The position numbers and the translations under genes are program-made. The notes under the pieces were generated by a model that was given only the letters and a program-made list of their open reading frames with translations, ran no database searches and was not told the DNA's origin. A DNA stretch of 54,975 bases from Alphaproteobacteria bacterium (GTDB lineage Bacteria; Pseudomonadota; Alphaproteobacteria; Rs-D84), in contig JAWPOG010000023.1 of the NCBI GenBank assembly GCA_033345155.1, forward strand, positions 1 through 54,975, given 5' to 3'. This document shows positions 31,000 through 54,975 of this stretch, piece after piece (the stretch's first letter is position 1; each line of letters starts with the position of its first letter).

Positions 31000-31085
31000 A
31001 ATTCCCCTCCTGTGGAGGGGGCGGACCGGCGCATGCCGGTGGGGAGGGTTGCTTATATAAAAAAAGTTTATCTAAGTAATCATGG

Positions 31086-31129
31086 ATTCCACCACTAACC
31101 ACTTACACTAACCACTAACCACTAAAAAA
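31086..31129. repeat. Heptamer (CCACTAA-type) cassette, copy B
   Basis: ATTCCACCACTAACCACTTACACTAACCACTAACCACTAAAAAA, abutting the HTH gene terminator. Confidence 0.9.
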
Positions 31130-31148
31130 TCCCCCAACCGGGGGATTT

Positions 31149-31591: not shown

Positions 31592-31651
31592 TCGATTAGA
31601 TAAATAAAAGTTTAGTTCAGCAAATAAAAACAGAATTTTTGAAAAAAATTC

Positions 31652-31684
31652 TGTCATCCCGTGGCTTGACCACGGGACCCAGGT
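31652..31684. repeat. Left palindromic inverted repeat of the GIY-YIG gene
   Basis: TGTCATCCCGTGGCTTGACCACGGGACCCAGGT, exact reverse complement of 32017-32049. Confidence 0.97.
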
Positions 31685-31691
31685 GGATTCC

Positions 31692-32000
31692 TTATAACAA
31701 ATTGTTCAAGTCATCATATAAATCGCGCCAAGTGGGATTATACTTTTCAATCAAATCTTTTTTCCAATTTCGTTTCCATTCTTTCAGTCGTTTTTCATGC
31801 CGTATTGCCTGGTTCACATCTTCAAAGCGTTCAAAATAAACCAACTTGTCCACATTGTATTTATTAGTAAAACCAGGCAACAAATGATTTTTGTGTTCAA
31901 AAATACGTTGTGGCAAATCACTAGTAAAACCAATATACAATGTTCCATTTTTGGCACTTGCCATAATATAAACATAATAATACTTTTGTTCAAAAATCAT
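31692..32000 (-). CDS. Stand-alone GIY-YIG nuclease (YhbQ-like)
   Basis: YYVYIM..TLYIGFTSDL..RIFEHK, FTNKY, LVYFE, AI.HEKRLKEW, NP.W.DL; start 32000 or 32015. Confidence 0.93.
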   Translation of the reverse strand: MIFEQKYYYVYIMASAKNGTLYIGFTSDLPQRIFEHKNHLLPGFTNKYNVDKLVYFERFEDVNQAIRHEKRLKEWKRNWKKDLIEKYNPTWRDLYDDLNNLL

Positions 32001-32016
32001 AACATAAGAATACATG

Positions 32017-32049
32017 ACCTGGGTCCCGTGGTCAAGCCACGGGATGACA
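32017..32049. repeat. Right palindromic inverted repeat of the GIY-YIG gene
   Basis: ACCTGGGTCCCGTGGTCAAGCCACGGGATGACA. Confidence 0.97.
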
Positions 32050-32110: not shown

Positions 32111-32196
32111 CGTCACCCCGGCGCAGGCCGGGGTCTATTGTTTCATAGTGCAAATGATAAAGCCCGCAGAACACAATGGATACCGGCCTGCGCCGG
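32111..32196. repeat. Inverted doublet of GTCA-tagged palindromes with no gene inside (REPIN-like)
   Basis: CGTCACCCCGGCGCAGGCCGGGGTCTATTG ... CAATGGATACCGGCCTGCGCCGG. Confidence 0.8.
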
Positions 32197-42156: not shown

Positions 42157-42915
42157 ATGATTAATTGGATTGGCTTGGTACAGGTAGTGATTATTGGGCT
42201 GTTGATGTATGTGTTTTATCGCAGTTTTATTCAAAATACCCAATCGGAAAAATTGGTGCATGGGCTGTTAGGATTGGCTGGGTTGTGGGTGCTTAGCTTT
42301 GTGTTGCCGTTGGTGCATTTGAATTTGTTGGCTACATTTTTGCATTATACGGCTTTGTTCTTGTCGCTTAGTTTGATTGTTGTGTTCCAGCCAGAATTGC
42401 GCAAGTTTATGGCGCTGATGGGGAATGTGCAGGGGTTGCGGCGTATGCTGAAGGTGGGGGCAGAACGCAAGCAAGATACCAAGGCTTTGGATGCTATTGT
42501 CAGTTCGGTTGAATATATGTCCAGTAAACATACCGGTGCGTTAATCGTGTTTTTAAGTGGCGTGGATGAAAGCGCAATTGATAAAAAGGGTGTGGTGATA
42601 GATGCAAAAATCAGCAGTGAATTATTATTGACTATATTCTTTAATAAAACTCCGTTGCATGATGGGGCTGTGATTATTGAAAATAATCGTATTGCGTATG
42701 CTGGGGGGATTTTACCTTTGTCACAAAATAACTTGAATTGGAAATATGGAACGCGTCATCGTGCTGCGCTGGGACTGAGTGAGGTTTCCCAGGCTGTGGT
42801 GTTGGTGGTGTCCGAAGAAAGTGGTGATATATCGATTGCGGAACGGGGCAAATTTACAAAATATGATGATGTTAAGAAATTACGTTCCAAGTTAGAAAAA
42901 GTTTTATATAAATAA
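42157..42915 (+). CDS. cdaA: Membrane-bound diadenylate cyclase CdaA/DacA
   Basis: Three N-terminal TMs, VVFQPELR, GALIV, TPLHDGAVII, GTRHRAALG, VSEESG. Confidence 0.92.
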   Translation: MINWIGLVQVVIIGLLMYVFYRSFIQNTQSEKLVHGLLGLAGLWVLSFVLPLVHLNLLATFLHYTALFLSLSLIVVFQPELRKFMALMGNVQGLRRMLKVGAERKQDTKALDAIVSSVEYMSSKHTGALIVFLSGVDESAIDKKGVVIDAKISSELLLTIFFNKTPLHDGAVIIENNRIAYAGGILPLSQNNLNWKYGTRHRAALGLSEVSQAVVLVVSEESGDISIAERGKFTKYDDVKKLRSKLEKVLYK

Positions 42916-43006
42916 AAATCCCCCCCCCCCCCCCGTTGGGGGGTGGTCAGATTGAATTTGTGTTTTTTTGTGGTATCATAGGTCAAGAAAACACAAGGGG
43001 TTGTCA

Positions 43007-52137: not shown

Positions 52138-53505
52138 ATGAAATACAGTTTTGGAATTTCTACATTGTCGATTGTTTGCGCAATATCTGCGGGTGTTTCG
52201 ATGCCGGTTTTTGCGGCGCCTGCGGTTCGTTCGTTGGGCAGTGCGGGTACATATGCCGGTACGGCTGGTGCGGTCAGTGGGGTTAAATCTGCTGCGCCAT
52301 CTGCGGGTCGTGCGGGGACGATATCGTCCGGTCGTGTTGGTTCGACGACGGCGGCAGATTCGACAACGGCTGGTGTGTCGGGAAATCGTGTTACATCGAC
52401 TCGGGTTGCTGCGACGCCACGTTTATCGATTGGTAAATATTTATCTGGGGCGACCATTGGTGGTGCGACTGGCGGTGCTACGATTAAGCCGGGGCAGTCT
52501 GGTGTTGATACCGAAGAATTGGGTGAACGTATCGATGGGTTAGAGGTCAAGGTAGAAGATCTGGCGAATGATATTGCGGATTTGACTGGGCAGACAACAA
52601 TTGTCGAATATGGCGAAGGTATTTTGACGATTATTCAGGGTGATAAAACGACTGACTATAACCTGGCCGAGTATTTTGCAACCCAGGAAGAATTACAGGC
52701 ATTGGAAGATGCGATTAATGAATTGGTTATTCCGACCAAGGTTTCTGAACTGGAAAATGATGCGGGTTATATTACCCAGGCTGATATCCCAAGTATAGAT
52801 CATCTGGCAACCCAGACAGAATTAGCCAATCGTGTGCAAGAATTGCGGGATTTGATATCGGGGTTAGATTATGTTGAATCAGACGATTTGACGGATCTGA
52901 ACAGTGTTATTATTACATTGCAAAATGGTCAGGTGACGAACGCTCAACAGATTCAAAGTTTGGGGCAAGTGGTGGACAATTTGAACCAAACCTATGCCAC
53001 AGATGAAGAGCTGGCGCAGGCTATTAAAAATGTTCAGGCGGGTTTGGCGGAATTGGAAAATTATTATACCAAGGCAGAATCGGACGCGCGTTTTCAACAG
53101 GTGTTGAACAGTGAACAAAATGAACAGACCGAACCGAATGTTATCCAAACGGGTGCGGGTGTTGTTAAATCGGTGGCCGCCGATGATGGTGTTGTGACGA
53201 TTACGCGTTCACTGATTGAAAATGCCGATATTGCGGATGACGCGGCGATATCTGCGGGCAAGATTGATACTTTGTCTGGGTTTATGGAAACGACCGAACA
53301 GGATATCGAAGATGTGAAATCGGCTTTGGATGACGTTGAACAGAAATTCACAGATTTGCAGTTGGATAATGTTTTGCATGGGATTATGGAAGATGGTACC
53401 TATGTGATTCACTTTTCCAATGGTGCGGTCAGTTATTCGCCCGTGGTATTTATTGGTGAGGGTGGCGAACCGATTGATATGACCGCGGGTTCGATAACCC
53501 CATAA
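52138..53505 (+). CDS. Secreted fibrous/coiled-coil protein with phage tail-fibre-like motifs
   Basis: Signal peptide, G/S/T/A-rich N-terminus, acidic coiled coil, IPTKVSELENDAGYIT, YYTKAESDARF, I.NADIADDAAI. Confidence 0.75.
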   Translation: MKYSFGISTLSIVCAISAGVSMPVFAAPAVRSLGSAGTYAGTAGAVSGVKSAAPSAGRAGTISSGRVGSTTAADSTTAGVSGNRVTSTRVAATPRLSIGKYLSGATIGGATGGATIKPGQSGVDTEELGERIDGLEVKVEDLANDIADLTGQTTIVEYGEGILTIIQGDKTTDYNLAEYFATQEELQALEDAINELVIPTKVSELENDAGYITQADIPSIDHLATQTELANRVQELRDLISGLDYVESDDLTDLNSVIITLQNGQVTNAQQIQSLGQVVDNLNQTYATDEELAQAIKNVQAGLAELENYYTKAESDARFQQVLNSEQNEQTEPNVIQTGAGVVKSVAADDGVVTITRSLIENADIADDAAISAGKIDTLSGFMETTEQDIEDVKSALDDVEQKFTDLQLDNVLHGIMEDGTYVIHFSNGAVSYSPVVFIGEGGEPIDMTAGSITP

Positions 53506-53628
53506 GAATCGGTCCATTAACAAGACGAATAGAGATTTGAACAGAAGAAACCAAGAAAAGAAAGCAGAAAAAACGAAATAATGAAGAAATAAAAAACAAA
53601 AAACAAAAAACAAGAAGGAAGGGAAAAA

Positions 53629-54339
53629 ATGAAAGTAAAAAATATTGTGTTTTCAGGATTTGCTGCGGCAGTCTTGATGGGTGTAGCAGCGGATGCTAAT
53701 GCGGACACGCACGTTGTGACCAAGGGGTATATTGATAGTTTGAACAGTACGGTTTCGGCTAATGCAGGTGAGTATGTTACTGGTGTGACACAGACTGCTG
53801 GTAAGCTTACGGGTGTGGCAAAGACAGGGTTTGAAACAGAGATTACTGCGACGAATCATAGCGAGACAAATGCACCAACAGCTAAGGCGGTTTATGATTA
53901 TGTTGAGGCTAATGACGACAACACAACGTATACAGGCTCAGGTTATGTCTCTATTGATGGGAATAATGACATCACAGTAACCAATGTTACAAATGAGGCT
54001 GCAGGTATTAATGATTCTAGTGAATTATTGACAACAGGTAAGGCGGTTTATGATTATGTTGAGGCTAATGACTCCGACACAACGTATACAGGCTCAGGTT
54101 ATGTCTCTATTGATACGGATAATAACATCACAGTAACCAATGTTACAAATGGTTCTATTACTGATGGTAGTACAGAATTGACGACAGCTAATGCGGTTTA
54201 TGATTATGTAACTCAGTTGACAGGTGGTGTTTTGCCTCAAGGATGCGAGAATGGTGATTGTGCTTTGGTAAAGATTGGTGGTACATTACAGTGGGTTGAA
54301 TTGACGACACCTGTGCTAGACCAAACAACTGGTGGTTAA
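53629..54339 (+). CDS. Secreted repeat protein (AVYDYV repeats)
   Basis: Signal peptide; three KAVYDYV/NAVYDYV units, two near-identical at DNA level (period 156 bp); C-terminal C...DC.LV...LQW. Confidence 0.8.
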   Translation: MKVKNIVFSGFAAAVLMGVAADANADTHVVTKGYIDSLNSTVSANAGEYVTGVTQTAGKLTGVAKTGFETEITATNHSETNAPTAKAVYDYVEANDDNTTYTGSGYVSIDGNNDITVTNVTNEAAGINDSSELLTTGKAVYDYVEANDSDTTYTGSGYVSIDTDNNITVTNVTNGSITDGSTELTTANAVYDYVTQLTGGVLPQGCENGDCALVKIGGTLQWVELTTPVLDQTTGG

Positions 54340-54361
54340 TTTAATTGCATAGGCGATTGAC

Positions 54362-54434
54362 AGAATTTGATTCTTAACAGTTCTTGTTCGGATGCTTTGT
54401 CCACAGGAATTGTTAGAATCAAATTCTTTTTTTT
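54362..54434 (+). terminator. Long hairpin terminator
   Basis: AGAATTTGATTCT-TAACAGTTCTTGT ... ACAGGAATTGTTA-GAATCAAATTCT followed by T8. Confidence 0.8.
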
Positions 54435-54450
54435 GGATTACTTAAACCGA

Positions 54451-54487
54451 TTTTTTAGTGGTTAGTGTAAGTGGTTAGTGTTGGAAT
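54451..54487. repeat. Heptamer (TTAGTGG-type) cassette, copy C
   Basis: TTTTTTAGTGGTTAGTGTAAGTGGTTAGTGTTGGAAT. Confidence 0.9.
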
Positions 54488-54541
54488 CCCACTGCGCCAA
54501 GGCTTCGTGGGACAAGTGCTTTAATTGCTCTTTGCTCTTTG

Positions 54542-54975
54542 CGCGCATTACCTGCCCCCCGTGTGGGGCGGGACAGTTTTACTTGACCCGCCATGCGGGT
54601 CTTTAGTAAAACTTGGGTGGGGGGTGTTTTTAGTGGTTAGTGTTTAGTGTTGGAATATATTACCACTACCCCGTCGGCAAAGCCGACACCCCTTCGCCAG
54701 CAAAGGGGATTTACTTAGATAAATAAAAGTTTAGTTAAGATATTAATTTTTAGAAATTAAGCGCCATTACCTGCCCCCGTGTGTGGGGCGGGCGGAATTC
54801 CCGACAATTTATTGGCGTAGGAATTCCGGGGTGGGGGGTGTTTTTAGTGGTTAGTGTTTAGTGTTGGAATATATTACCACTACCCCGTCGGCAAAGCCGA
54901 CACCCCTTCGCCAGCAAAGGGGATTTACTTAAGATAAATAAAAGTTTAGTTAAGATATTAATTTTTAGAAATTAA
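54542..54975. repeat. Tandem array of ~219-bp composite units with a variable hairpin insert
   Basis: Units 54542-54760 and 54761-54975 are near-identical except unrelated inserts at 54573-54614 and 54793-54828. Confidence 0.95.

Follow-up and report, generated by a model that had tools for sequence, protein, structure and literature searches.

Intrastrand-triplex repeats of the BoxC/PIT type occur in E. coli and in more than 260 other bacterial genomes and are tied to genome rearrangement (PMC4666352). Their E. coli form, TMECO, reads CCCTCNCCC-N3-6-GGGNGAGGG-N3-GGGNGAGGG, and the published finder (ITxF) accepts loops of 1-6 nt; neither a mechanism nor a partner protein is named in the sections of that paper used here (PMC4666352). 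In a second system, the Ssn (GIY-YIG) single-strand nucleases with their SRM/NTS hairpin repeats, the parts of the account used here describe a small nuclease gene flanked by copies of a hairpin repeat that is dispersed over the rest of the genome too, and a co-occurrence of gene and repeat across genomes (Chenal et al., 2025; PMC11893778). Judged by these parts, Ssn with SRM/NTS is the nearest worked-out analogue of the locus described below, which shares both features and differs from it in two respects: the nuclease has a PD-(D/E)XK/Vsr-like rather than a GIY-YIG fold, and in place of a single hairpin the repeat has three G/C strands with hairpins in the loops.

Short palindromes and short motifs also make up variable intergenic mosaics in the REP/BIME-RAYT systems and in the dRS3-bounded NIMEs of the neisseriae. 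The repeats studied here resemble both in this respect and in having a shared inter-module junction motif, ATAAATAAAAGTTTA, of which the genome holds 27 copies with at most one mismatch (0.6 in shuffled sequences) next to many module types. A search for Y1/RAYT transposases (PF01797) gave no match in the genome, which is 82.75% complete (controls responded), and no dRS3 was found in the array region. There is a further likeness to MITEs and their autonomous parents, in that a gene-bearing unit with inverted ends grades into internally deleted forms and gene-less pairs, which are about 170 nt long in one relative (G004). Unlike in MITEs, no transposase family and no recognisable target-site duplication were found, and the orientation of the repeat arms varies between species.

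Anatomy of the array at the contig end

The window, that is, the whole stretch of DNA analysed, comprises 54,975 nt and is the entire contig C30 of a 45-contig assembly of 853,696 bases. A mosaic of repeats forms its final ~520 bases, and two arm units the last 434. The first-pass annotation had the window ending at a unit boundary, with a possible continuation of the array; what ends there is the contig itself, within repeats. The mosaic begins behind a 236-aa ORF (53629-54339) and the hairpin with a T-run that is its likely terminator (54362..54435, plus strand), in which 13-nt arms of perfect complementarity (54362-54374 and 54415-54427) are followed by TTTTTTTT; a consensus terminator scan did not list this hairpin, whose loop is too long. 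A first heptamer array of the AGTGGTT type (54452..54487, plus strand; TRF period 7, repeat families D3/D4) and module Q (GGAATCCCAC...GTGGGACAAGTGC) with a TTTAATTGCTCTTTGC leader (54484..54541, plus strand), which has dispersed copies, lead up to the two units.

In an alignment of unit 1 (54542-54761) with unit 2 (54762-54975) the mean column identity is 92%. From the 3' G-run to the AT tail 146 of 147 positions are equal, with one 1-nt indel, as are 26 of 28 positions in the 5' leader. Between GGGGCGGG and GGGTGGGG, at one and the same site, unit 1 carries a 42-nt insert, I1 (54573-54614), and unit 2 a 36-nt insert, I2 (54793-54828), which cannot be aligned with each other and which both form DNA hairpins (fold z -6.75 and -5.08, no shuffle out of 200 being as good). 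Alignment and folds agree in this with the first-pass annotation, which had described two near-identical scaffold units with unrelated hairpins at one site.

Arm 1 as a whole (54542..54624, plus strand), delimited by a regex census and DNA folding, consists of a leader CGCGCATTA, an A strand CCTGCCCCCC (54551-54560), a loop 1 GTGT (54561-54564), a B strand GGGGCGGG (54565-54572), the loop-2 hairpin I1 and a C strand GGGTGGGGGG (54615-54624). Its DNA fold (-20.4 kcal/mol, z -4.20) has A paired with B, I1 as a hairpin and C free. It is followed by a heptamer array (54627..54656, plus strand; TRF and repeat families), by P1, a 62-nt double hairpin on the minus strand (54655..54716, fold z -4.02), which on that strand is a miniature of the arm layout (C-run, G-run, hairpin, G-run), and by the linker ATAAATAAAAGTTTA with an AT-rich tail (54717..54761, plus strand), recognised by the copies of the linker and the position of the tail before arms, which runs into arm 2 with no gene in between. 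Arm 2 (54762..54838, plus strand), delimited in the same way, has a leader CGCCATTA, an A strand CCTGCCCCC (54770-54778), a loop 1 GTGTGT (54779-54784), a B strand (54785-54792), the loop-2 hairpin I2 and again GGGTGGGGGG as its C strand (54829-54838), with a DNA fold of -19.8 kcal/mol (z -3.67). Behind it lie a heptamer array (54841..54870, plus strand; TRF and repeat families), a second copy of P1 found by blastn against the genome (54869..54930, minus strand), and a linker with an AT tail (54931..54975, plus strand), which the contig end interrupts. The next element should be an arm leader, and in another assembly (run X2) the end of the AT tail continues into CATTACCTG. The opposed palindromes around a heptamer cassette with an AT tail that had been described from the sequence are found here as well, with heptamers at 54629-54651 and 54843-54865 and P1 directly behind each.

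The strands of the arm core stand in a fixed relation to one another. CCTGCCCC pairs with GGGGCGGG over 8 bp in both units, one T.G included, and GGGTGGGG mirrors GGGGCGGG except that a T stands opposite its single C. Folds of arms and hairpins have z-scores from -3.7 to -6.8 with none of 200 shuffles equal, and the A:B stem is 8 bp long; these folds were computed with ViennaRNA, which considers Watson-Crick pairs only and leaves the third strand free. The arm core fits a hairpin-bearing variant of the BoxC/PIT "intrastrand triplex" design, and we infer from this arrangement of strands that the arm would fold as a triplex with a 40-nt loop. As in BoxC/PIT and TMECO, a C-rich strand, its G-rich complement and a second, mirroring G-rich strand follow one another in the same order, and the repeats are multi-copy, intergenic and linked to rearranged regions. 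The arms differ from TMECO in their strands, which are CCTGCCCC/GGGGCGGG/GGGTGGGG instead of CCCTCNCCC/GGGNGAGGG/GGGNGAGGG and do not follow the consensus, and in their loops: where TMECO has a loop 2 of 3 nt, the arms have a hairpin of 36-42 nt, and some arms have a 44-nt hairpin in loop 1. Because the loops hold hairpins, the published finder with its loops of 1-6 nt would miss these arms. A G-quadruplex (GGGG-C-GGG...GGG-T-GGGG) with the hairpin as a long loop could suit the G strands equally well.

Dispersed modules and the DUF559 cassette

Searches of the genome (G000) with blastn-short gave seven copies of I1 with 100% identity throughout, six of them full and one truncated where a contig ends, and nine copies of I2 with 94-100% identity. 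With these 15 full copies and the cut one, two insert alleles account for all inserts in the genome. Each copy is flanked by GGGGCGGG and GGGTGGGG (6 of 6 for I1, 9 of 9 for I2), and neither hairpin occurs outside the scaffold. The inserts are not unique, since each recurs on other contigs at 94-100% identity; they correspond to what the first-pass annotation had named as its counter-case, two common REP subtypes found genome-wide.

The regex census for complete cores, CCTGCCCC(A)-loop 1-GGGGCGGG(B)-loop 2-GGGTGGGG(C), returned 14 cores and one more that the start of a contig truncates. Ten of the 14 have GTGT or GTGTGT as loop 1, and the other 4 have a 44-nt stretch there with a third hairpin, X. 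All four loop combinations are present: a short loop 1 occurs with I1 in 4 cores and with I2 in 6, and X occurs with I1 in 1 and with I2 in 3. On the 5' side the core is preceded by an AT tail (6/14) or a GC-rich leader (8/14), and on the 3' side the C strand is followed by the start of a DUF559 gene (2), by a reversed DUF559 3' end (5) or by a heptamer array (7, the two window units among them). Dispersal extends to the remaining modules. The genome has P1 seven times, in six cases with 100% identity (blastn), there are 10 heptamer arrays against 1.0 in shuffled sequences (strict regex), and module Q recurs at C16:79-146, at C1:18718-18785 (98.5% identity over 68 nt) and on other contigs; as single-stranded DNA the module Q hairpin is not more stable than shuffled sequences (z +0.61).

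Microhomologies were found at other module junctions: GGGGG is shared with terminator stems, GAATCCCA is common to module Q and the DUF559 gene, and TATAT to the end of that gene and the linker. They point to frequent illegitimate recombination among the modules. Such modules are held by 11 of 90 contig ends, compared with 32 of 2000 random windows, which accounts for contig C30 stopping where it does.

The arms are linked to a small gene. The stretch C1:20636-21310 consists, in this order, of a tail, an arm with I1, ATG, 124 codons, a stop, an inverted arm with X and I2, and a tail. The encoded 124-aa protein (C1:20767-21138) matches the Pfam family DUF559 (PF04480, E-value 5e-32), which is Vsr-like, and the structure PDB 3HRL ("endonuclease-like protein", E-value 1.4e-20), with the VDF...ELDG..H motif kept. 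Truncated DUF559 3' ends lie behind four other arms of this genome. A relative (G006) has 10 arm pairs, 9 with I1 on the 5' and I2 on the 3' side of the gene and 1 with I2 on both sides; four of its DUF559 genes are full length and the others internally deleted. I1 and I2 thus mark either end of a small cassette with the order arm(I1)-DUF559 gene-inverted arm(I2), and it is because the cassette has two ends that exactly two inserts recur.

Arms were also found within ~120 nt of a DUF559 gene at seven loci of six further genomes (L035, L036, L114-L118). Inverted arms surround the gene in G000, G006, G040, G005, L035 and L036; the arms are direct in G068, and the gene of G004 and of G127 has a gene-less pair on either side. 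Since arm orientation around the gene varies in this way, the cassette is not a simple terminal-inverted-repeat transposon. We found no clean empty site or target-site duplication: the sequences next to the G006 cassettes fall on different contigs of G000 or at contig ends, and the best candidate for an empty site, L040 compared with C43, is a synteny break. The authors who describe another DUF559 protein, Caulobacter VsrA, interpret it as a mismatch-repair nuclease of the Vsr type, with no link to repeats in the sections of the paper used here (PMC12907096), and titles and abstract openings in the literature gave no link between DUF559 and these repeats.

Distribution in the genus and evolution of the loop hairpins

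We searched 121 genomes sampled from the genus for exact matches to GGGGCGGG-N30-50-GGGTGGGG. The scaffold is present in 12 of them, nine with at least two copies and three with single non-hairpin matches, and the reversed pattern gave 4 matches in total over the 121 genomes. Arms number 15 in G000, 31 in G004, 2 in G005, 23 in G006, 11 in G040, 7 in G061, 7 in G068, 2 in G120 and 17 in G127, which makes 115. In what appears to be the same sample, DUF559 proteins at least 65% identical to the cassette protein occur in exactly the nine genomes with two or more arms, and the remaining 112 have neither two or more arms nor a DUF559 of the cassette subfamily; the nine co-occurring genomes may be one clade and do not count as nine independent events. 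DUF559 homologues of at most 54% identity, many of them in frames of 500-756 aa, are the only ones in 32 other genomes.

The loop-2 hairpins fall into at least four families (I1-like, I2-like, I3 and one specific to G005), and each species has a pair of its own. Their stems carry compensatory changes, from CGG..CCG to CAG..CTG in G004 and from GACCCGC/GCGGGTC to GACCTGA/TCAGGTC in L036/G120, and they diverge gradually together with the DUF559 protein. The A, B and C strands are invariant across arms while the loop hairpins differ between species. From this pattern of conservation the three G/C strands look like the part under constraint, and the loops like spacers that can fold or markers of the ends. 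Since the strands are frozen and the loops are replaced and reshuffled, a probable functional core can be separated from dispensable spacers, with loops that would merely need to fold.

The constant scaffold with differing hairpins at an exact site, as originally proposed, is borne out by the 115 copies in nine genomes and the at least four families; the two explanations that had been attached to it, exchange or acquisition of cassettes and an array of RNAs, did not hold up. Under the first, a recombinase or nuclease would insert hairpins between the G-runs in the manner of an integron or a CRISPR array. The exact borders of the swap, identical in every copy, the number of hairpin families at the site across the genus and the nuclease gene linked to the arms would all suit such a process, but the genome has only two alleles, near-identical in their 6-9 copies and forming a fixed pair of the species' own, and the hairpins are confined to the scaffold. 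A gradual divergence of hairpins alongside the DUF559 protein is moreover what one would expect of descent rather than capture. Blast searches of phages and plasmids with both units gave no match, exact scans of viral contigs with both cores gave 0 matches, and neither the unit-specific junction nor the I1 core was found in JGI metagenome contigs. No integrase or Y1 transposase was found in the assembly, at its stated completeness. We give cassette acquisition very little credence. An integron- or CRISPR-like array in the strict sense was rejected on the two insert alleles, the lack of foreign matches and the lack of an integrase or Cas gene among the upstream ORFs.

The second explanation takes the array for a set of structured non-coding RNAs in which one stem-loop domain is variable, or for 3'-UTR stabilisers or terminators. 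Strong folds with compensatory stem changes are what it would lead one to expect, the array lies directly behind the terminator of a gene, and P1 ends in a weak terminator-like hairpin. We nevertheless consider it improbable, because the arms of a cassette lie on opposite strands, so that a single transcript would present one arm as its G-rich and the other as its C-rich strand, and because the fold leaves the invariant 3' G strand without a partner. Rfam gave no match at the gathering score; over positions 53000-54975 and with E-values up to 1, it returned two chance-level matches (E-values 0.74 and 0.87), neither inside the array. Purine-motif triplexes, in addition, do not form in RNA, as stated in the introduction of Holder et al. 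(PMC4666352).

Origin of the tandem pair and wider occurrence of the motif

We think it likely that the window ends in a mosaic of dispersed repeats whose triplex-type arms are linked to DUF559 and serve as a nuclease substrate, and that its two units arose as sister copies by unequal exchange. The junction between C strand and heptamers, GGGGGGTGTTTTTAGTGG, is found among the 14 cores in the two window units only, and we infer from it, and from the 146 of 147 equal positions between C strand and tail compared with 26 of 28 in the leader, that these are sister copies, most simply by unequal exchange. The exchange would have taken place between the G-runs (C strands) of two neighbouring arms, one with I1 and one with I2, and would have duplicated the stretch J-heptamers-P1-tail-leader-A-B-I2-C, with a result that resembles an insert swap. 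Because every arm has the same scaffold, unequal exchange gives an apparent swap of inserts, and the earlier argument that simple duplication could not give a precise swap no longer applies. The model predicts that the next arm past the contig end would again carry I2, with a AAGCGCCATTA leader. Gene loss by deletion from a full cassette would leave gene-less arm pairs and solo arms, and the window units would be such solo arms. On single-stranded DNA the arms would fold into what may be the cognate substrate of the DUF559 nuclease, which may spread or maintain them via break-induced copying.

The tandem pair might instead be an assembly artefact, in which a chimeric path through the repeat graph joined two non-adjacent dispersed arms, one with I1 and one with I2. 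The array does occupy the very end of the contig, and the excess of modules at contig ends reported above points the same way. Logan unitigs of four other runs, 48-100 nt long, have several alternative continuations and none bridges the array. Matching sequencing runs numbered 20, all as Logan contigs, with a best share of 0.34 and no RNA run among those listed, and no array-spanning contig was present among the Logan unitigs of four gut metagenomes, which branch at module borders, so that this particular tandem join rests on one assembly. The same layout of arm, heptamers, P1, tail and arm is however found in the middle of contigs, at C1:20413-20761 and C12:16606-16954, and tandem arms occur in relatives: G040:C5 has four arms ahead of its DUF559 gene, and G004 has three-arm arrays with periods of 269 and ~195. 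The longest exact repeat between the units appears to be ~102 nt, broken by an indel at 54717, a length that large k-mers may be able to resolve. We consider an artefact unlikely, and even a misjoin would leave the identity of the modules unchanged. In the four gut metagenomes the B-I1-C and B-I2-C unitigs (56-63 nt) have a depth of 120-206 compared with 2-26 over the neighbouring gene, and the core unitigs branch to the DUF559 start, the DUF559 end and hairpin X, the alternatives seen in the genome.

We then examined 65 DUF559 loci with less than 60% identity from Proteobacteria, Planctomycetota, Nitrospirota, Chloroflexota and Actinomycetota, in MAGs as well as isolates. Our own finder looked for an 8-nt G-rich strand with its complement upstream and its mirror downstream, allowing loops of 3-60 nt and at most one mismatch each. 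A motif pointing at the gene was present within 300 nt upstream at 41 of 63 loci and one pointing away from it at 17 of 63; downstream, motifs pointed toward the gene at 12 of 59 loci and away from it at 9 of 59. In control regions 600-900 nt upstream the corresponding counts were 0/60 and 0/60, and 600-900 nt downstream they were 1/56 and 2/56. Many of the motifs near these distant DUF559 genes are classical TMECO-like ones, and several have loop-2 hairpins. At positions opposite an A in the purine strand, the third strand of 47 distinct motif pairs carries A 37 times, T 11 times, G twice and C twice. The triad rules of the purine motif admit A or T opposite a purine-strand A. E. coli K-12 has one DUF559 gene, ycjD, and a textbook motif, CCCCTCGCCCC-TCT-GGGGAGAGGG-TTA-GGGTGAGGGG, lies ~170 nt downstream of it.

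These observations suggest a possible, still tentative generalisation, in which the three-strand motif with its loop hairpins would be the recognition structure of DUF559, gene and arms would make up a new class of nuclease-driven selfish element, and the BoxC/PIT repeats would belong to the same system with YcjD as their enzyme. If so, the class would have an autonomous form, miniature pairs and solo arms, its invariant strands would be the catalytic target, fast-evolving loop hairpins, open to swapping, would tell its left end from its right, and YcjD would be the missing enzyme of the E. coli BoxC/PIT repeats, which have gone unexplained since the 1990s. DUF559 is a very common family of nuclease fold with almost no functional data, and a gut alphaproteobacterium of 0.9 Mb, in whose sampled genus repeat and nuclease subfamily co-occur perfectly, offers a clean case. 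The arms provide defined oligonucleotides for binding and cleavage assays. Mosaics of this sort also matter for annotation, as they break assemblies and mimic "cassette arrays".

Among other hairpins of the genome, the commoner GTCATCCCGYGG...CCRCGGGACCCAGG ones were considered as SRMs and rejected, as the published SRM pattern does not match them. The same pattern has no match in 54340-54975, and its sole match in the window, at 32111, lies near a GIY-YIG gene. The genome also has five small GIY-YIG genes with SRM-like hairpins, one of which is inside the window.

A junction motif beside nuclease cassettes

The window carries a small GIY-YIG nuclease gene on the reverse strand at 31700-32010 (PF01541, 56 bits, 132-aa frame), with GTCATCCCGTGG...CCACGGGACCCAGG hairpins to either side (near 31655-31690 and 32010-32045), and these hairpins were found again inside the repeat mosaics, the intergenic patchworks of short dispersed repeats. 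The genome contains five small GIY-YIG genes of this kind. In having hairpins on both flanks, the window gene resembles Ssn/SRM (PMC11893778), and position 32111 was the sole match of the published SRM pattern in the window.

Comparing window positions 31596-31620 with locus L032 of the genus relative G006, we found an orthologous flank and the linker motif (GATAAATAAAAGTTTAG), a short junction repeat, in both; what follows is the GIY-YIG cassette in the present genome and a DUF559 nuclease cassette in G006. At another G006 locus, L040, 95% homology to contig C43 of the present genome (C43:24448) extends over 1096 nt and ends exactly at the linker motif, the point from which the cassette runs in L040. 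Beyond this point the DNA of the two genomes is unrelated, and the cassette thus lies at a synteny break. From the L032 comparison, the linker motif looks like a docking or junction site common to different nuclease cassettes.

DUF559 domains in longer frames and an E. coli locus

A 379-aa frame of the genome contains a second DUF559 domain (C28:8263-8760), which shows 38% identity. Behind it come inverted C-run/hairpin/G-run palindromes of its own. Across genus genomes, open frames of 500-756 aa contain DUF559 homologues with 40-54% identity, sometimes two per frame (for example in G100:C11:8321-9832, G053:C2 and G086:C7), and these may be in-frame insertions or fusions.

At the E. coli K-12 locus (L110, 4300-4480, reverse strand), about 40 nt of the ycjD 3' end (GAGACGGTGCTGGAGAATATTC...) are repeated beyond the stop codon, at a distance of about 60 nt, with a partial C-run/G-run motif in between, as if an element had been inserted into the end of ycjD.

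Further repeats of the window

A second triplex-type family, located at window 31000-31131 (reverse strand) and also at C37:22480-23150, has the layout CCCCTCC-CTT-GGAGGGGGCGG-hairpin(ACCGGCGCATGCCGGT)-GGGGAGGG and is adjoined by the linker motif and by terminator-plus-heptamer arrays.

Mosaics also adjoin two similar repeat-rich genes, one at C1:18960-20300 and the other at window 53629-54339 (forward strand). The product of the latter is 236 aa long and starts with a signal-peptide-like segment; its gene contains a 156-bp repeat in 2.2 copies, with the motif KAVYDYVEAND..TTYTGSGYVSID. A Pfam search with this protein returned no family at its cut-off.

A 252-aa ORF (42157-42915) is followed by a terminator-like hairpin (AAAAATC15GTTGGGGGGTGG) whose 5' arm is a run of 15 C (42920-42934), which may be length-variable.
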